Positions 1 to 7,461 are shown, numbered from the stretch's first letter. The stretch: DNA of 7,461 nucleotides from a virus (IMGVR_UViG_2534681766_000009:1-7461), one strand, 5' to 3'. Made by a program: numbers and translations. Notes: generated by a model not told the origin, from the letters alone.

Positions 1-1224
1 ATTGAATTAGTTAAATCTTCAGAAAAAAGAATTGAACCAACGACGACTAAATTAGATAAAATTAAATATATTTGGGAAAAAACATTACCTCACCGAGAGC
101 TTGTTTTAGGCGGTTTAACAATTCAAACACGAGCAAAAGGAAATAACGAGGCTGTCTATAACCCCTCGGAAATGAGCGACGGTGAGCGAGTTATTTTCTA
201 TCTGATTGGGCAATGTCTTGCAGCACCCGAAAATGGAATTATTGTCATAGACGAGCCTGAAATTCATCTTCACAAATCTGTACAAGTTCCATTATGGAAG
301 GATATAGAAAAACTCCGACCTGATTGCCTGTTTGTATATATGACTCATGATACTGATTTTGCTGCAGCACTGCATGATGCAAAGAAAATCTGGTTAAAAA
401 GTTATGATGGTTCCAGTTGGGATTGGGAAGATGTTCCCGATGTCGAAGGCCTACCAGAAAGTTTATTAATTGAAATATTGGGTAGTAGAAAACCAATTGT
501 TTTTGTTGAGGGGGAAAATGGAAGCTATGATGTATCCCTTTATCGTGCTGTGTTAAATAGTTATCTAGTGATACCATCTGGTTCTTGTAGTCAAGTAATA
601 CAAAATGTTAAAGCTCTAAGAGCCAGTGAAAAACTCCATTATATGGAAGTTTTTGGTATTATTGATAGGGATAGACGTGTTGAAAATGAAATTCAATCGC
701 TTCTGGAATACGGTATTTATACTCTAAGCGTGGCTGAAGTCGAAAATCTCTTTTGCGTTCCGGAAGTTATAACTTTAGTTAGCGAACGATTAGTCAGGAA
801 TCCAGATAAAGATCTACAATCAGTTAAAGATTTTGTGTTCCGTAAAATATCCTCAGAGCTGGATACTCAGATTTCACTGCGTGTGGCTGGCGAAATTAAA
901 TTCATGCTTAATTGTTTTGATGAAAAAGCAAAAGGGGTCGATGCTCTTAGTAGAGCTCTTGAGTTGTTGACGTCACAAATTAATGTTAAAGAGCTTTATG
1001 ATGAAAGTTTATCTCTGTTTAATAATGCAGTTGAGAAACGTGATTATCTTCTTGCATTAAAACTTTATAACAGGAAAAGCCTTTCATCCCAAGTAAGTAA
1101 GCATCTGGGGCTGGCTAATGGACAGCTTGCTGAATTAGTGGTCAGGATGGCTAATAATGAAAGTGGAGAGTCAATGAGAAATGCTCTCAGACCATATTTT
1201 GGTGAGTTTTCGGGTAAAATATAG
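1..1224 (+). CDS. 5-prime-partial CDS (about 407 codons in window): C-terminal half of an ABC-type ATPase (AAA_21/OLD-like) fused to a Toprim/DUF4435-like nuclease domain; candidate anti-phage protein (OLD-family or PARIS AriA-AriB-fusion-like)
   Basis: Frame 1 is open from nt 1 to the stop at 1222-1224, so the gene starts upstream of the window. ATPase motifs in order: signature-like SEMSDGER (nt 166-189), Walker B IIVIDEPEIHLH (D at 250-252), H-loop-like YMTHDTDF (about nt 340-360). Downstream Toprim-like motifs: IVFVEGENGSYD (E at 508-510) and GIIDRDRR (661-678), i.e. a Glu then DxD about 50 aa later. AT-rich composition contrasts with the phage block. Walker A is not visible (outside window). 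Confidence 0.7.
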   Translation: MELVKSSEKRIEPTTTKLDKIKYIWEKTLPHRELVLGGLTIQTRAKGNNEAVYNPSEMSDGERVIFYLIGQCLAAPENGIIVIDEPEIHLHKSVQVPLWKDIEKLRPDCLFVYMTHDTDFAAALHDAKKIWLKSYDGSSWDWEDVPDVEGLPESLLIEILGSRKPIVFVEGENGSYDVSLYRAVLNSYLVIPSGSCSQVIQNVKALRASEKLHYMEVFGIIDRDRRVENEIQSLLEYGIYTLSVAEVENLFCVPEVITLVSERLVRNPDKDLQSVKDFVFRKISSELDTQISLRVAGEIKFMLNCFDEKAKGVDALSRALELLTSQINVKELYDESLSLFNNAVEKRDYLLALKLYNRKSLSSQVSKHLGLANGQLAELVVRMANNESGESMRNALRPYFGEFSGKI

Positions 1225-1376
1225 TTATACAGAGTGCATAATACTTATCGTGACTGTGGTTGGATGATGTGTGTGGTTCATGTGTCTGCTCCTCGCTCAC
1301 AGCAGGCTGTCAGATTTGATAGCGTTTGGGCTATGTAAATTGTCAGTTGGAAAATGAGTGAGTGCAAGTCAGGACA

Positions 1377-1405
1377 GGCGGGCGAATTGCCCGCCTTTTC
1401 TTTAT
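1377..1405 (+). terminator. Rho-independent terminator (7-bp GC stem GGCGGGC / GCCCGCC, 5-nt loop GAATT, then TTTTCTTTAT)
   Basis: Perfect inverted repeat 1377-1383 / 1389-1395 followed directly by a T-rich run; lies between the cargo gene and the FI promoter region. Confidence 0.6.
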
Positions 1406-1480
1406 CTGTTGTTTCATCCACTGACCAGACAGGTCAAATAGCGTCTCAGGCACTGCCCAATAGAAAATAGTTGCACCCAT
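1406..1480 (+). promoter_or_regulatory. Putative Ogr-dependent late promoter (P_F-like) upstream of the tail sheath gene, containing a TGACC-N5-GGTCA dyad
   Basis: Position directly upstream of FI start (RBS GGAG at 1487-1490). Perfect palindrome TGACCAGACAGGTCA at 1422-1436. An imperfect TGT-N12-CCA at 1410-1427 resembles the TGT-N12-ACA late-promoter element as I remember it. No convincing -35. -10 and TSS not determinable by eye. Confidence 0.3.
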
Positions 1481-1499
1481 TAACCACGGAGTTAAACGG

Positions 1500-1934
1500 A
1501 TGAGTGACTATCATCACGGCGTGCAGGTGCTGGAGATTAACGACGGCACCCGCGTCATTTCCACCGTATCCACTGCCATTGTCGGCATGGTCTGCACGGC
1601 CAGCGATGCGGATGCGGAAATCTTCCCCCTCAATAAACCGGTGCTGATTACCAATGTGCAGAGCGCAATTGCAAAGGCCGGTAAAAAAGGCACGCTGGCG
1701 GCATCGTTGCAGGCCATCGCCGACCAGTCAAAACCGGTCACCGTTGTCGTGCGCGTGGAAGACGGCACCGGCGAAGACGAAGAAACGAAACTCGCGCAGA
1801 CTGTTTCCAATATCATCGGAACCACCGACGAAAACGGTCAGTACACCGGACTGAAAGCCCTGCTGGCGGCGGAGTCGGTACCCTGGACAATCCGGTCAAG
1901 CGTGGTGAGCAGGTCATCGAACAGGTCACGCTGA
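1500..1934 (+). pseudogene. FI: Truncated tail sheath protein gene (P2 FI family): about 127 native N-terminal codons followed by an out-of-frame 17-codon tail
   Basis: N-terminus [40 protein letters not shown]... matches the P2 tail sheath FI N-terminus as I recall it. Sheath proteins of this family are about 396 aa; here the frame runs into E-derived sequence read out of frame ([17 protein letters not shown]) and stops at 1932-1934. Confidence 0.8.
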
Positions 1935-2286
1935 TGAAACCCAATGCCGGGACGCTGCGCGGTGTCAGTCTGGCTGCGGTCGCGAACTCCGAAGTCGATG
2001 CACTGATTAAGGTGCTGCCGCGCATGACGGCACCGATGCTGACCGAGCAGGAAGTCGCCGCGCTGGAACTGCCTGACCTTGTGGCGCTGGCCGGTAAGGT
2101 GGTCGGTTTTTTGTCGCCGAACTCGGTGCAGTGACGTTCCCGAAAAATCTGTCGGTCGATGACCTGATGGCGGATGTGGCAGTGATATTTCACTGGCCGC
2201 CATCAGAACTATATCCCATGAGCCTGACCGAACTCATCACATGGCGCGAAAAGGCGCTCCGGCGAAGCGGAAACACGAATGAGTAA
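1880..2286 (+). pseudogene. E: N-terminally truncated tail assembly chaperone E with its -1 frameshift extension E' (P2 E/E' family); no native start codon
   Basis: Frame 2 reads [24 protein letters not shown]...GFLSPNSVQ to the stop at 2132-2134 with no ATG before the internal Met at 1934. Slippery T_TTT_TTG at 2107-2113; the -1 frame then stays open to TAA at 2284-2286, overlapping the T start, as in P2 E/E'. Confidence 0.7.
2107..2113 (+). other. Programmed -1 ribosomal frameshift slippery heptamer T_TTT_TTG (E to E+E')
   Basis: Heptamer in the 0-frame of E, seven codons before the E stop; the -1 frame is open for about 58 codons after it. This is the conserved chaperone frameshift arrangement of P2-like and lambda-like tail operons. 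Confidence 0.7.
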
Positions 2287-4726
2287 CAATGTAAAATTAC
2301 AGGTATTGCTCAGGGCTGTTGACCAGGCATCCCGCCCGTTTAAATCCATCCGTACAGCGAGCAAGTCGCTGTCGGGGGATATCCGGGAAACACAAAAATC
2401 ACTGCGCGAGCTGAACGGTCAGGCATCCCGTATTGAGGGATTTCGCAAGACCAGTGCACAGCTCTCCGTGACTGGTCATGCACTTGAAAAGGCACGGCAG
2501 GAGGCCGAAGCCCTTGCCACACAGTTTAAAAACACCGAACGTCCGACCCGTGCTCAGGCGAAAGTGCTGGAATCCGCAAAGCGGGCGGCGGAGGACTTAC
2601 AGGCGAAATATAACCGCCTGACGGATTCCGTTAAACGCCAGCAGCGGGAACTGGCCGTTGTGGGAATTAATACCCGCAATCTTGCACATGATGAGCAGGG
2701 ACTGAAAAACCGTATCAGTGAAACCACCGCACAGCTTAACCGTCAGCGTGACGCGCTGGCGCGTGTCAGTGCACAACAGGCAAAACTTAACGCAGTCAAA
2801 CAGCGTTATCAGGCCGGAAAGGAACTGGCCGGAAATATGGCCTCAGTGGGCGCTGCCGGTGTGGGGATTGCTGCTGCGGGAACGATGGCCGGTGTTAAGC
2901 TGCTGATGCCCGGTTATGAGTTTGCGCAGAAAAACTCAGAATTGCAGGCTGTGCTCGGTGTGGCAAAAGACTCCGCCGAAATGGCCGCGCTACGCAAGCA
3001 GGCGCGCCAGCTCGGCGACAATACCGCCGCCTCGGCAGATGATGCAGCCGGGGCGCAGATTATTATTGCGAAAGCCGGTGGGGATGTTGATGCCATTCAG
3101 GCGGCAACGCCGGTCACGCTGAATATGGCGCTGGCGAACCGTCGCACGATGGAAGAAAACGCCGCCCTGCTGATGGGGATGAAATCCGCCTTTCAGCTTT
3201 CAAACGATAAGGTCGCTCATATCGGGGATGTTCTCTCCATGACGATGAACAAAACCGCCGCCGATTTTGACGGCATGAGCGATGCGCTGACCTATGCCGC
3301 ACCTGTGGCAAAAAATGCCGGTGTCAGCATTGAAGAAACCGCCGCAATGGTCGGGGCGCTGCATGATGCAAAAATCACAGGCTCAATGGCGGGGACGGGA
3401 AGCCGTGCCGTGTTAAGCCGCTTGCAGGTACCGACGGGAAAAGCATGGGATGCTCTCAAAGAGCTTGGAGTGAAAACCTCAGACAGCAAAGGAAACTCCC
3501 GGTCAATATTTACCATTCTGAAAGAAATGCAGGCCAGTTTTGAGAAAAACCGGCTCGGTACTGCCCAGCAGGCTGAATACATGAAAACTATTTTCGGGGA
3601 GGAGGCCAGCTCAGCCGCCGCTGTGCTGATGACTGCCGCCTCAACCGGAAAGCTGGACAAACTGACCGCTGCGTTTAAAGCCTCAGACGGGAAGACCGCA
3701 GAGCTGGTAAATATCATGCAGGACAACCTCGGCGGTGACTTTAAGGAGTTTCAGTCCGCTTATGAGGCGGTAGGGACAGACCTGTTTGACCAGCAGGAAG
3801 GCGCACTGCGTAAGCTCACACAGACGGCCACAAAGTATGTGTTAAAACTCGACGGCTGGATACAGAAAAACAAATCACTGGCGTCAACCATCGGCCTCAT
3901 TGTCGGTGGTGCACTGGCGCTGATTGGTATCATCGGTGCCATTGGCCTCGTAGCCTGGCCGGTTATCACCGGCATCAATGCCATTATCGCAGCAGCAGGC
4001 GCAATGGGGGCAATCTTCACGACGGTTGGCAGTGCCGTTATGACGACTATCGGGGCGATTAGCTGGCCGGTAGTGGCCGTGGTGGCCGCCATTGTCGCCG
4101 GGGCGTTACTTATCCGTAAATACTGGGAGCCTGTCAGCGCATTTTTTGGCGGTGTGATTGAAGGGCTGAAAGCGGCATTTGCGCCGGTGGGGGAACTGTT
4201 CACGCCACTTAAACCGGTGTTTGACTGGCTGGGTGAAAAGTTACAGGCCGCGTGGCAGTGGTTTAAAAACCTGATTGCCCCGGTCAAAGCCACCCAGGAC
4301 ACCCTGAACCGTTGCCGTGACACGGGCGTCATGTTCGGGCAGGCACTGGCTGACGCGCTGATGCTGCCGCTTAATGCGTTCAACAAACTGCGCAGTGGTA
4401 TTGACTGGGTACTGGAAAAACTCGGTGTTATCAACAAAGAGTCAGACACACTTGACCAGACCGCCGCCAGAACTCAAGCCGCCACGTATGGCAGCGGTGG
4501 TTATATTCCGGCGACCAGCTCTTATGCAGGCTATCAGGCTTATCAGCCGGTCACGGCACCGGCTGGCCGCTCTTATGTGGACCAGAGTAAAAACGAATAT
4601 CACATCAGCCTGACGGGTGGTACTGCACCGGGGACACAGCTTGACCGCCAGTTACAGGATGCGCTCGAAAAATACGAGCGGGATAAACGTGCGCGCGCCC
4701 GTGCCAGCATGATGCATGACGGTTAA
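2279..4726 (+). CDS. T: Tail tape measure protein (P2 gpT family), 815 aa, apparently intact
   Basis: Single 815-codon ORF, the length I recall for P2 gpT. Coiled-coil-like Q/R/A-rich N-terminal third and a long Gly/Ala/Ile-rich hydrophobic segment (about nt 3880-4110) typical of tape measure proteins. Start ATG 2279 overlaps the E' stop (ATGAGTAA). Confidence 0.9.
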   Translation: MSNNVKLQVLLRAVDQASRPFKSIRTASKSLSGDIRETQKSLRELNGQASRIEGFRKTSAQLSVTGHALEKARQEAEALATQFKNTERPTRAQAKVLESAKRAAEDLQAKYNRLTDSVKRQQRELAVVGINTRNLAHDEQGLKNRISETTAQLNRQRDALARVSAQQAKLNAVKQRYQAGKELAGNMASVGAAGVGIAAAGTMAGVKLLMPGYEFAQKNSELQAVLGVAKDSAEMAALRKQARQLGDNTAASADDAAGAQIIIAKAGGDVDAIQAATPVTLNMALANRRTMEENAALLMGMKSAFQLSNDKVAHIGDVLSMTMNKTAADFDGMSDALTYAAPVAKNAGVSIEETAAMVGALHDAKITGSMAGTGSRAVLSRLQVPTGKAWDALKELGVKTSDSKGNSRSIFTILKEMQASFEKNRLGTAQQAEYMKTIFGEEASSAAAVLMTAASTGKLDKLTAAFKASDGKTAELVNIMQDNLGGDFKEFQSAYEAVGTDLFDQQEGALRKLTQTATKYVLKLDGWIQKNKSLASTIGLIVGGALALIGIIGAIGLVAWPVITGINAIIAAAGAMGAIFTTVGSAVMTTIGAISWPVVAVVAAIVAGALLIRKYWEPVSAFFGGVIEGLKAAFAPVGELFTPLKPVFDWLGEKLQAAWQWFKNLIAPVKATQDTLNRCRDTGVMFGQALADALMLPLNAFNKLRSGIDWVLEKLGVINKESDTLDQTAARTQAATYGSGGYIPATSSYAGYQAYQPVTAPAGRSYVDQSKNEYHISLTGGTAPGTQLDRQLQDALEKYERDKRARARASMMHDG

Positions 4727-4740
4727 GGAGGTGACGAAAA

Positions 4741-5220
4741 ATGATGCTCGCGTTAGGTATGTTTGTTTTTATGCGCCAGACGCTGCCACACCAGACCATG
4801 CAGCGTGAATCAGATTATCGCTGGCCGTCAAATTCCCGTATCGGTAAACGGGATGCCTACCAGTTTCTCGGCGTTGGTGAGGAAAACATGACGCTTGCCG
4901 GTGTGCTTTATCCCGAACTGACCGGCGGCAAGCTGACGATGACCACGCTCAGACTGATGGCAGATGAAGGCCGGGCGTGGCCGTTGCTGGATGGTACCGG
5001 CATGATTTACGGCATGTATGTCATCAGCAAGGTGAGTGAAACAGGGAGTATTTTCTTTGCAGACGGCACACCCCGAAAAATTGATTTTACGCTGTCGCTC
5101 ACCCGCGTTGATGAATCACTGGCCGCGCTTTATGGCGATATCGGTAAACAGGCGGAATCGCTCATTGGTAAGGCTGGCAGTATGGCGACTAAATTCACGG
5201 GTATGACGGGGGCGGGATAA
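4741..5220 (+). CDS. U: Tail protein U (P2 gpU family), 159 aa, apparently intact
   Basis: 159-codon ORF, the length I recall for P2 gpU, N-terminus MMLALGMFVFMRQTLPHQ. Strong SD AAGGAGG at 4725-4731 about 9 nt upstream. Stop TAA 5218-5220 overlaps the D start (TAATG). Confidence 0.88.
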   Translation: MMLALGMFVFMRQTLPHQTMQRESDYRWPSNSRIGKRDAYQFLGVGEENMTLAGVLYPELTGGKLTMTTLRLMADEGRAWPLLDGTGMIYGMYVISKVSETGSIFFADGTPRKIDFTLSLTRVDESLAALYGDIGKQAESLIGKAGSMATKFTGMTGAG

Positions 5221-6381
5221 TGCTGGATGCGCTGACATTTGATGCAGGCAGTACGCTGACGCCGGATTACATGCTGATGCTCGACAGCAGGGATATTACC
5301 GGCAATATCAGCGACCGTCTGATGAGTATGACCCTGACGGATAACCGGGGCTTTGAGGCTGACCAGCTTGATATTGAACTGAACGATGCCGACGGGCAGG
5401 TCGGGCTGCCGGTTCGTGGCGCTGTCCTGACGGTGTATATCGGCTGGAAAGGTTTTGCCCTGGTATGCAAAGGGAAATTTACCGTTGATGAGGTAGAACA
5501 CCGGGGCGCGCCGGATGTGGTCACCATCCGCGCCCGGAGTGCAGATTTTCGCGGGACGCTCAATTCCCGCCGGGAAGGCTCCTGGCATGACACCACGCTC
5601 GGTGCGATTGTTGAGGCGATAGCCTCCCGTAACAGGCTGGAAGCCAGTGTCGCTCCGTCACTGGCCGGAAATAAAATCCCGCACATCGACCAGTCGCAGG
5701 AGTCTGATGCGAAATTCCTGACCCGTCTTGCAGAACGCAACGGCGGTGAGGTGTCGGTAAAAATGGGAAAACTGTTGTTTCTCAAAGCGGGGCAGGGGGT
5801 GACGGCCAGCGGTAAAAAAATCCCGCAGGTCACCATCTCCCGCAGCGACGGCGACCGTCATCATTTTGCGATTGCTGACCGTGGAGCCTATACCGGCGTA
5901 ACGGCAAAGTGGTTACACACCAAAGACCCGAAACCGCAAAAGCAGAAGGTAAAACTGAAACGCAAAAAGAAAGAGAAACACCTGCGCGCACTGGAGCACC
6001 CGAAAGCGAAACCGGTCAGGCAGAAGAAAGCGCCTAAAGTACCGGAAGCGCGCGAAGGTGAATACATGGCCGGTGAGGCTGACAACGTTTTTGCCCTGAC
6101 CACGGTATATGCCACGAAAGCGCAGGCCATGCGCGCCGCTCAGGCGAAGTGGGATAACTGCAACGGGGGTGGCGGAGTTCTCCATCAGCCTGGCTACCGG
6201 TCGGGCAGATATTTACACGGAAACACCGGTCAAAGTGTCAGGCTTTAAGCGCGTCATAGACGAGCAGGACTGGACAATCACTAAGGTGACACATTTTCTG
6301 AATAATAGCGGCTTCACGACGTCCTTGGAGCTTGAGGTCAGGCTTTCTGATGTGGAGTACGAAACAGAAGATGATGAGTGA
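5220..6381 (+). pseudogene. D: Tail protein D (P2 gpD family) interrupted by a +1 frameshift in a G5 run at 6165-6169; would be 386 aa if one G were removed
   Basis: Frame 3 ORF 5220-6248 (MLDALTFDAGSTL...) continues as frame 1 ORF ending at 6381 (GVAEFSISLATGRADIYTE...EDDE). Removing one G from GGGGG joins them as ...KWDNCNGVAEFSIS..., close to the 387 aa I recall for P2 gpD. Could be a genuine pseudogene or a homopolymer sequencing error. Confidence 0.8.
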
Positions 6382-6399
6382 TGTTTTTGTTTTATCTGT

Positions 6400-6428
6400 T
6401 TGTTTTATAAGGACAAATTAACTAAAAT
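6400..6428 (+). promoter_or_regulatory. Putative sigma70 promoter of ogr: -35 TTGTTT (6400-6405), 17-nt spacer, -10 TAAAAT (6423-6428)
   Basis: Hexamers with canonical spacing in the D-ogr intergenic region, about 34 nt upstream of the ogr ATG at 6462; RBS GAGGTG just upstream of the start. Confidence 0.4.
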
Positions 6429-6461
6429 GGCACCATCAACAAACCGGAAGAGGTGCTCGCG

Positions 6462-6679
6462 ATGTTTCATTGTCCTTTATGCCAGCATGCCGCACATGCG
6501 CGTACAAGCGCTATATCACTGACACGACAAAAGAGCGTTATCACCAGTGCCAGAACGTGAATTGCAGCGCCACGTTCATCACTTATGAGTCGGTACAGAG
6601 ATACATCGTGAAGCCGGGAGAAGTCCACGCCGTAAGACCGCACCCGTTGCCGTCAGGGCAGCAAATTATGTGGATGTAA
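6462..6679 (+). pseudogene. ogr: Late transcription activator Ogr (Cys4 zinc-finger, P2 Ogr/Delta family) disrupted by a 1-nt deletion near 6508-6511; would be 72 aa if restored
   Basis: Frame 3 from ATG 6462 reads MFHCPLCQHAAHARTS then diverges and stops. Frame 2 carries the rest: ...RYITDTTKERYHQCQNVNCSATFITYESVQRYIVKPGEVHAVRPHPLPSGQQIMWM to the stop at 6677-6679. Inserting one C (AGCGCT to AGCCGCT) restores a 72-codon ORF with the C-X2-C-X22-C-X4-C pattern. No single frame currently has all four Cys. Confidence 0.8.
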
Positions 6680-6690
6680 TTACAAACAGG

Positions 6691-6720
6691 AAGCCCCTCA
6701 GTCGAGGGGCTTTCTGTTTT
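6691..6720 (+). terminator. Rho-independent terminator after ogr (9-bp stem AAGCCCCTC / GAGGGGCTT, 4-nt loop, then TCTGTTTT)
   Basis: Perfect inverted repeat 6691-6699 / 6704-6712 followed by a T-rich tract, 12 nt after the ogr stop. Confidence 0.7.
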
Positions 6721-6819: not shown

Positions 6820-7461
6820 ATGGAAAAAGTTATAATTGAGCTTGATAATCGTTGGGAGTTAGCTGATTTCGCGGTCTTAACGAAAGAGTATTTGCAGCTA
6901 TATGGTTTTTTTTATGGCCTAAAAGGAGGATCAAGAGGATATTCAACAATGCCTTGGGAGGGTGGGCACAGTGTAGTGAACTTTTTTAGAGGGGCTTACA
7001 GTGCGACTCCACCAGATTTACGTCCTGTAGTGAAAAAAATTCAGTATGCCTCTCCTGGCTTTATTGAATTGTCTGCTCTTATTGATATCTCTTGGCAGAT
7101 TGCTGAGTTAGTTACTGCTGTTGGTGGAAGTATTCTGGCTGCCAACAAAGTTTACGATCAGGTGATGCGTACATATCGACAAAGAGAATGGGCAAAGTTG
7201 AAATCAGAGAAGCTGCGTATACAGAATCAAATTAAAGAGATTGAACTTGTTTCTGACGCAGTTAAATCACTTGAATCTGTGATGGCACTTAGTGAAGAAC
7301 AACGTAAAAACTTGGTTCAACTATCGGGGGCAGATGAACTGGTTCAGTTAAAGATACTTTTGGCTGTTTACCGACGGTTATCTCCTCTTGTTGAGTTGCA
7401 AAACAGCGGGAAAGCTAATTTTTCTGCAGGGAAAAATAAAAATTTAAAAGCGTCCGATTAA
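6820..7461 (+). CDS. Hypothetical protein, 213 aa, AT-rich gene of unrecognised family; C-terminal half looks coiled-coil-like
   Basis: Complete ORF from ATG 6820 to TAA 7459-7461 (the last base of the window). GGTGG RBS-like motif at 6806-6810. Possible -10 TATACT at 6776-6781. Composition and codon usage differ from the phage block. No catalytic motif recognised. Confidence 0.65.
   Translation: MEKVIIELDNRWELADFAVLTKEYLQLYGFFYGLKGGSRGYSTMPWEGGHSVVNFFRGAYSATPPDLRPVVKKIQYASPGFIELSALIDISWQIAELVTAVGGSILAANKVYDQVMRTYRQREWAKLKSEKLRIQNQIKEIELVSDAVKSLESVMALSEEQRKNLVQLSGADELVQLKILLAVYRRLSPLVELQNSGKANFSAGKNKNLKASD

Follow-up and report, generated by a model that had tools for sequence, protein, structure and literature searches.

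A probable single-gene PARIS system (ariAB) at the Z/fun hotspot of a P2-like prophage

Sequence Analysis of the ariAB Gene

The window analysed in this study was a DNA stretch of 7461 nucleotides from a virus (IMGVR_UViG_2534681766_000009:1-7461), and its left end carries the 3′ part of a gene, ariAB. This gene is probably a fused, single-gene PARIS system (AriAB, merged AAA_21 and DUF4435) that a P2-like prophage carries as a moron in its Z/fun hotspot. On the + strand, frame 1 was open from base 1 to the TAG stop at 1222–1224 and comprised 407 codons, and the list of open reading frames (ORFs) contained only its ATG-initiated portion (172–1224, +). The open frame, an identical full-length copy and the PADLOC AriAB match assigned positions 1–1224 (+) to the last 1224 nt of ariAB, namely codons 131–537 and the stop. 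The first 390 nt of the gene, including the Walker A motif, lie upstream of the window start. They were read from a locus of Escherichia coli 09-00049 (L001), whose positions 14001–15224 were 100% identical to window positions 1–1224. There the complete gene has 1614 nt, encodes 537 aa and is annotated as WP_032170940.1, "DUF4435 domain-containing protein".

Window positions 1–1500 were found with 100% identity in three complete E. coli chromosomes and with 99.8–99.9% identity in three others. The gene is rare, with six carriers among 5426 complete E. coli genomes and none among 50,697 phage records. The G+C content was 0.34–0.42 over positions 1–1200 versus 0.51–0.61 over most of the phage backbone, or roughly 0.36 for the cargo versus 0.55 for the backbone. 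No Rfam family or non-coding RNA, tRNA or repeat was found in the gene region or the window, and there was no evidence in support of the antisense ORFs at 115–285 and 245–577.

An earlier annotation, read from the raw sequence without tools (the first-pass annotation), had described an AT-rich gene with an ABC signature, Walker B (DEPE), an H-loop, VEGENG and DRD, and all of these were found in the translation. The positions of the motifs, all on the + strand, are given in the order of window residue, full-length residue and nucleotide. For the ATPase, the ABC signature SEMSDGER was located at 56–63/186–193/166–189, the Walker B motif IIVIDEPE at 80–87/210–217/238–261, and the histidine of the H-loop THD at 116/246/346–348. 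For the nuclease, the Toprim glutamate in VFVEGENG was E170/E300/508–510, and DRD occupied 222–224/352–354/664–672. Further acidic residues beyond those listed earlier were the Toprim aspartate D177/D307/529–531 and the ExE of AEVEN, E246 and E248/E376 and E378/736–744. The N-terminus of the identical copy in E. coli 09-00049 supplied Walker A, GANGSGKS at residues 29–36 (K35), and the Q-loop Gln58, so that the Walker A core, the presence of which had been left for checking, is in place.

With these residues, the ATPase motif set is complete (Walker A Lys, Q-loop, signature, Walker B D214/E215 and H-loop H246), as is the two-metal Toprim acidic set (E300, D307, D352, D354 and E376/E378). The two-metal site of AriB consists of five acids, E26, D30, D88, E90 and E122 (PMC11464382), with which the present set was equated by order and spacing and not by residue-level superposition. 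Two domains were delimited in the window on the + strand. The C-terminal half of the ABC ATPase domain covers 1–447, on the evidence of the Pfam AAA_21/AAA_15 matches, the conserved motifs and the structure comparison. The AriB-like nuclease module covers 448–1221 and comprises a DUF4435/Toprim core and then a helical domain, as indicated by the acidic residues, the profiles and the predicted fold.

Family Assignment

In the published procedure, PARIS is detected by AAA_15 or AAA_21 together with DUF4435 (PMC9122126, methods). Pfam DUF4435 (PF14491) matched the window fragment with 75.3 bits (E = 7.9e-21) and the full protein with 75.0 bits, and AAA_21 matched them with 32.4 bits (E = 1.3e-7) and 41.7 bits, respectively, the cut-off being 27 in both cases. 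Since both profiles exceeded their gathering cut-offs in one polypeptide, the protein falls under the published PARIS rule. AAA_15 reached 27.6 bits on the full protein, which was under its cut-off of 32.1. The PADLOC AriAB profile PDLC02982 matched the full protein with 620.9 bits (E = 5.2e-187), aligning residues 3–534 with profile positions 25–568 of 570, and it also matched the window fragment (E = 3.5e-156). The other, longer fused model of PADLOC (PDLC02981) gave 61 bits, and the two-gene models gave 63.5 bits (AriB) and 52 bits (AriA). Furthermore, phrog_25246 of PHROGs, a moron family labelled "ABC transporter", matched with 891 bits, and no NCBIfam family reached its cut-off.

The protein is accordingly a member of the fused AriAB family, and the ATPase-Toprim/DUF4435 fusion of the OLD/PARIS type proposed at first was borne out by the DUF4435, AAA_21 and AriAB profiles. 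AriA and AriB are known to be fused at times (PMC9122126, PMC11464382, PMC12409363), and the PARIS phylogeny contains two "merged" ariAB clades of single origin from the two-gene clade 9 (PMC11464382). The known fused AriAB (PDLC02982; AAA_21 and DUF4435 merged in DefenseFinder) shares with the present protein the chain of about 540 aa, the standalone gene and the end-to-end match of 621 bits. No distinguishing feature was found with respect to this family, which is defined bioinformatically, and the gene described here is an E. coli member of it in the Z/fun slot of P2. Both the family and its fused form are already described, as is the hotspot. Standard tools (PADLOC and DefenseFinder) would label the gene as PARIS, and little new biology is added; the reading of the raw sequence had picked the defence gene and the hotspot correctly.

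Other defence systems scored far lower in PADLOC. GajA, PtuA, AbiL/AbiLi, MADS (mad3) and HEC-01 (HEC-01A) reached 25–42 bits and matched the ATPase core only. Gabija was rejected, as the GajA model (34 bits) covered the ATPase region only, no second gene was present in the P2 slot, and no conserved neighbour was seen in 69 loci. HEC-04 is a tested single-chain ABC-Toprim system (bioRxiv 10.1101/2024.01.29.577857); it was absent among the 25 best PADLOC matches listed, and the presence of a HEC-04 model in that release was unconfirmed.

Predicted Structure

An AlphaFold2 (AF2) model of the full-length protein was built from 37 homologues and was confident, with a predicted local distance difference test (pLDDT) value of 88.9 and a predicted template modelling (pTM) value of 0.75. 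The top Foldseek match of this model in the PDB was the class 1 OLD protein from Thermus scotoductus (6p74, E = 5.4e-7), followed by GajA, PtuA and SMC heads. Because the full-length search was dominated by ATPase heads and was uninformative on the nuclease, the C-terminal module was re-modelled alone. The AF2 model of these 258 residues (window 448–1221) was likewise confident, with a pLDDT of 91.7, and its best Foldseek match was AriB in the PARIS complex (8ux9_A, E = 1.4e-3, probability 1.00). The E-value of the next match was about 60-fold worse, and the RNase M5 Toprim domain (6z2b, probability 0.66) stood further down. The nuclease module is thus predicted to have the AriB fold, with a Toprim domain and a C-terminal helical domain. 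Both the DUF4435 profile and this match agree with the Toprim/DUF4435-like C-terminus expected by the first-pass annotation, and the structure comparison that it had suggested gave AriB as the best match.

The full-length match raised the alternative that the protein is a class 1 OLD-family nuclease akin to P2 Old or to the OLD proteins of Vibrio and Thermus, which would nick or degrade DNA in response to, for example, RecBCD inhibition, and not a PARIS-type tRNase. The class 1 OLD proteins (P2 Old, 6p74) likewise consist of a single chain in which an ABC ATPase is followed by a C-terminal Toprim domain, and the prototype old gene is at home in P2-like phages, which gives a P2-borne precedent. 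However, the full-length model reached a TM-score of no more than 0.30 to 6p74, a match that stems from the ATPase head common to both proteins. Moreover, Pfam Toprim_OLD had no match at E ≤ 1, against the 75 bits of DUF4435, and the GajA and ATPase-Toprim models of PADLOC gave 27–34 bits, against 621 for AriAB. Unlike class 1 OLD, the protein has a Toprim domain of the DUF4435/AriB type and an AriB-like helical domain. The old gene of P2 also occupies another hotspot, between A and Q, whereas ariAB lies at Z/fun. This alternative is therefore considered improbable. In addition, PARIS itself has been classed as "class 4 OLD-like" (PMC11464382), so the disagreement is partly one of labels, and the real issue is the substrate.

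Conservation and Distribution of the Fused Family

Fused AriAB is a very large, ancient and compact family, which ranges from Proteobacteria to Firmicutes, Bacteroidota, Cyanobacteria and the candidate phyla radiation (CPR). After clustering at 50% identity, 2087 clusters were obtained at E ≤ 1e-10 and 1207 at E ≤ 1e-30, so that the family comprises at least 1207 clusters. The best 150 clusters were mostly 510–607 aa long and aligned over nearly the whole length, while 18 shorter ones (291–476 aa) matched just a part of the query. Among species-representative genomes, the fused gene was present in Gamma- and Betaproteobacteria, Cyanobacteria, Bacteroidota and Clostridia, as well as in Planctomycetota, Deinococcota, Campylobacterota, Chlamydiae, Saccharibacteria and further phyla.

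Conservation was evaluated in an alignment of 132 homologues with 33–52% identity to the query. The complete list of invariant columns was E192, D214, E215, P216, H219, E300, D352, D354 and E378. Conservation of at least 90% was found for Walker A, Q58, the signature, H246, D307 and E376. The invariance or near-invariance of the catalytic residues indicates that both active sites are under strong constraint. The linker helix of 15 residues was also well conserved. The least conserved parts were the N-terminal 25 residues, the insert (especially about 80–100 and 125–145) and the C-terminal helical domain.

The genomic surroundings of the family were diverse. No partner gene was found in the P2 slot, and none was conserved elsewhere, since neighbouring families within 3 kb were common to at most 5 of 69 loci from many phyla. 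The Enterobacter homologue was located in a prophage tail-fibre region, and that of Thiorhodovibrio was close to HsdR fragments and transposases. In four Firmicutes genomes (L042, L043, L046 and L049; Clostridia/Faecalibacterium), an ariAB homologue was inserted between the type III mod (N6_N4_Mtase) and res (ResIII) genes. This nesting in type III restriction–modification (R-M) operons fits the view that PARIS-type sensors guard restriction systems from anti-restriction proteins.

The distribution also bears on the alternative that the ATPase-nuclease has a non-defence role in the phage or cell, for instance RNase M5-like RNA processing or DNA repair. The Toprim fold is common to RNase M5, as seen in the match to 6z2b, and one archaeal ATPase of the OLD family acts in the cell cycle and apparently not in antiviral defence (PMC12796447). 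The spread of the present family over many phyla is patchy, however, and its members occupy variable AT-rich prophage cargo sites, adjoin transposases or lie within R-M operons. The gene is absent from all but 6 of the 5426 complete E. coli genomes, and a conserved housekeeping neighbourhood was lacking in the 69 loci. A non-defence role is thus highly unlikely, and it is the least probable of the readings considered. A defence role, which had been proposed from the start, is upheld as the reading for the family, the phenotype being expected by analogy with two-gene PARIS.

Cargo Position at the P2 Z/fun Hotspot

In E. coli 09-00049, ariAB was the sole annotated ORF between the tail-fibre assembly gene G, which ends at 13348, and the sheath gene FI, which starts at 15500. 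The P2-like phages in the collection matched the flanks alone and had other inserts in between. In every sequence without the gene, comprising 956 E. coli genomes and 61 phages, matching began at window positions 1283–1292. Together with the alignment to P2 (AF063097), these match starts placed the right junction with the P2 backbone at about 1283–1285, and the sequence 1225–1284 (+) is the cargo-specific 3′ untranslated tail of the gene. In annotated P2 this place is taken by fun(Z), with the V-operon terminator on one side and the pF activator site on the other. P2-like phages are known to have a second defence hotspot at the Z/fun locus (PMC9519451, PMC13586616).

Compared with fun(Z) and other Z/fun cargo, ariAB shares the slot from the end of the G/V operon to pF and the AT-rich, non-essential, lysogenic-conversion character. 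The protein is unrelated to that of fun(Z). The orientation differs too, in that ariAB runs on the + strand in the direction of the late operons and fun(Z) of P2 runs the other way. The cargo position named by the first-pass annotation was therefore correct, as the slot matches that of annotated fun(Z), P2-like homology begins at about 1283–1285, and the pF site lies at about 1404–1432. Its placement of the gene upstream of the sheath gene was right as to position; in this window, however, a deletion of 1417 bp at 1880/1881 has cut the sheath gene short.

Downstream of the junction, positions 1285–1500 aligned with P2 as far as the FI start codon. In this stretch the backbone contains a G+C-rich hairpin followed by a T-run at 1376–1396 (+), which corresponds to a terminator-like site at 15376–15396 in L001 and is conserved in P2. 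It is likely to function as the terminator for ariAB and for upstream read-through, ahead of pF. The binding region for the pF late-promoter activator (Ogr) was placed at about 1404–1432 (+), as it aligns with the annotated P2 site (AF063097, 17555–17583). An exact TGT-N12-ACA Ogr box was not matched; the pF site reads TGT-N12-CCA at 1410–1427, the same as in P2. The pF transcription start is expected at about 1474–1476 (P2 AF063097, 17626–17628), ahead of the FI ATG at 1500. On the other side of the gene, a simple scan found no terminator in the 262-bp AT-rich region upstream of ariAB (L001, 13349–13610). The gene may be transcribed by read-through from the V-W-J-I-H-G late operon, or from a non-consensus promoter.

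Comparison with Two-Gene PARIS and Proposed Mechanism

The mechanism of canonical PARIS has been studied in detail (PMC10802264, PMC11464382, PMC12409363). AriA assembles via head-head and coiled-coil interfaces into a hexamer, whose ATPase heads sequester three monomers of AriB. AriB is freed when Ocr binds to AriA; one study placed this binding at the coiled-coil interface and another at the central or radial pores. The freed AriB dimerises and halts translation by cleaving the anticodon stem-loops of tRNA-Lys and other tRNAs. In comparison with the two-gene PARIS of E. coli B185 (8ux9, 8v45, 8v46), the present system is one polypeptide with a 1:1 ratio, whereas the B185 complex is AriA6:AriB3. 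Moreover, its ATPase insert falls short of that of B185 AriA by about 175 aa, and the coiled-coil responsible for hexamer formation and Ocr binding is mostly missing.

Several observations weigh against a simple assignment to PARIS. The first is the insert itself. In AriA, Walker A and Walker B are 354 aa apart, from K39 to E393 (PMC11464382), and the coiled-coil insert between them is the site of Ocr binding and hexamer assembly (PMC10802264). In the present protein the distance is 180 aa, with 160–201 aa in 130 family members, and the longest insert helix in the AF2 model has 25 residues. Because most of the AriA insert is missing, the oligomer and the Ocr trigger should not be assumed. Secondly, the fusion imposes a 1:1 stoichiometry and prevents the AriB release step; release of the effector from the fusion is impossible unless the chain is proteolysed. 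Thirdly, the similarity to the solved two-gene PARIS was marginal. The Foldseek TM-score of the nuclease module to AriB was just 0.41, and a profile search against the PDB gave AriA only at E = 0.12, with AriB unlisted. The matches in that search were weak and confined to the ATPase core, with the retron PtuA-like protein at E = 8.7e-5, and phmmer with the full protein found nothing in the PDB at E ≤ 0.01. Owing to this weak match to solved chains, family membership rests on the family profiles and the fold comparison. In addition, no sigma-70-like promoter was found by the simple scan of the 262-bp region upstream of the gene. Finally, no published experimental test of any fused AriAB was found, and the literature mentions were phylogenetic or bioinformatic only. 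To this extent the earlier suggestion of an uncharacterised variant stood; it did not stand in so far as the clades are already in PADLOC, DefenseFinder and the PARIS phylogeny (PMC11464382).

With these points taken into account, a mechanism can be proposed for the fused PARIS protein. The N-terminal ABC ATPase would serve as the infection sensor, and the C-terminal AriB-type two-metal Toprim nuclease would be the effector. In the uninfected cell, the nuclease might be silenced in cis against its own ATPase head via the conserved short linker. A trigger encoded by the phage, which by analogy would be a protein that counters restriction or another defence, would then shift the ATP-dependent head-to-head state, after which two nuclease modules could pair into an active dimer. 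This dimer would cut host tRNAs in the anticodon stem-loops, so that translation would stop and the infection would be aborted. The outcome would be that the lysogen and the prophage are shielded from competing phages. From the literature on two-gene PARIS we carry over, by analogy, a defence phenotype, the class of trigger, tRNA as the target and a requirement for dimerisation, while activation without effector release is what we infer ourselves.

The chances appear about even that compact AriAB differs materially from the PARIS model, in that there is neither a hexamer nor a release step and the ATPase heads gate the pairing of the attached nucleases in the manner of class 1 OLD. A non-Ocr trigger may then act via the insert, which is short and hypervariable (about 80–100 and 125–145), or via the variable C-terminal helical domain. 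If such a release-free mode is true, an E. coli-native single gene at the P2 hotspot would be convenient to show the mechanism. The 537-aa E. coli AriAB could thus be a tractable model for the silencing and activation of one-protein PARIS.

State of the Surrounding Prophage

The prophage around ariAB showed several lesions. The deletion of 1417 bp at 1880/1881 was seen in comparison with every intact relative (L001, 15881–17297). It joins FI at about codon 127 out of frame to codon 7 of E, so that two-thirds of the sheath gene FI and all of the tube gene FII are lost. The junction contains a TA microhomology and leaves an FI ORF at 1500–1934 and an E remnant at 1934–2134, and it had no match in the GTDB representative genomes. 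If the deletion is real, the prophage is unable to make tails. Window positions 1879–6713 were 99.69% identical to E. coli strain 700481, with respect to which four 1-nt deletions were present, at about 6157 and 6169 (both in D), at about 6443 (in the spacer before ogr) and at about 6507 (ogr codon about 16). The late gene D (ORFs 5220–6248 and 6109–6381) and the activator gene ogr are thereby frameshifted. No such deletion was found in the ariAB stretch 1–1880. The prophage is defective, or else the lesions are assembly (long-read) errors.

These lesions bring in the alternative that ariAB is a decaying or domesticated remnant without present defence activity, a passenger in a defective prophage. 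This would be in line with the FI-FII-E deletion and the frameshifts in D and ogr, with the presence of the gene in just 6 of the 5426 complete E. coli genomes, and with the negative promoter scan. On the contrary, positions 1–1880 had neither an indel nor a substitution relative to the intact copies in three genomes, and every catalytic residue is intact. The same protein is also intact in a far more degraded P2 remnant, and the defence genes of defective P2 elements have been reported to be near-identical to those of intact ones (PMC13586616). A decayed ariAB is thus very unlikely, and an intact fused PARIS gene is the preferred reading.

The more degraded remnant was observed in E. coli 700481 (L009; NZ_CM129038, 4513–20648). 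It retains partial terminase, V and J genes as well as fused fragments, and its ariAB is intact and encodes a protein identical to WP_032170940.1, which agrees with the report of intact defence genes in defective P2 elements (PMC13586616).

Second Cargo Gene

A second ORF of low G+C content (about 0.40) was observed at 6820–7461 (+), just past the ogr terminator. It encodes 213 aa and matched the PADLOC profile PD-T4-10_B with E = 1.3e-34, with no Pfam or PHROG match. PD-T4-10B is the toxin of a two-gene anti-T4 defence system of the toxin–antitoxin (TA) type (PMC9519451), and the 140 bp upstream accommodate no PD-T4-10A-like ORF. Judging by the sequence match, P2 may carry this ORF at its ogr-att end as a second cargo gene for defence. 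In E. coli FLI21, the same PD-T4-10B-like gene (WP_000416606.1) was flanked by ogr and fieF.

The window as a whole was not covered continuously by any complete E. coli genome, and the highest coverage was 90%. The left part of the window matched P2 prophages integrated by yegQ/trhP, and the flank past ogr, which diverges from E. coli 09-00049 from 6714 on (L001, 22137 on), matched those integrated by fieF.

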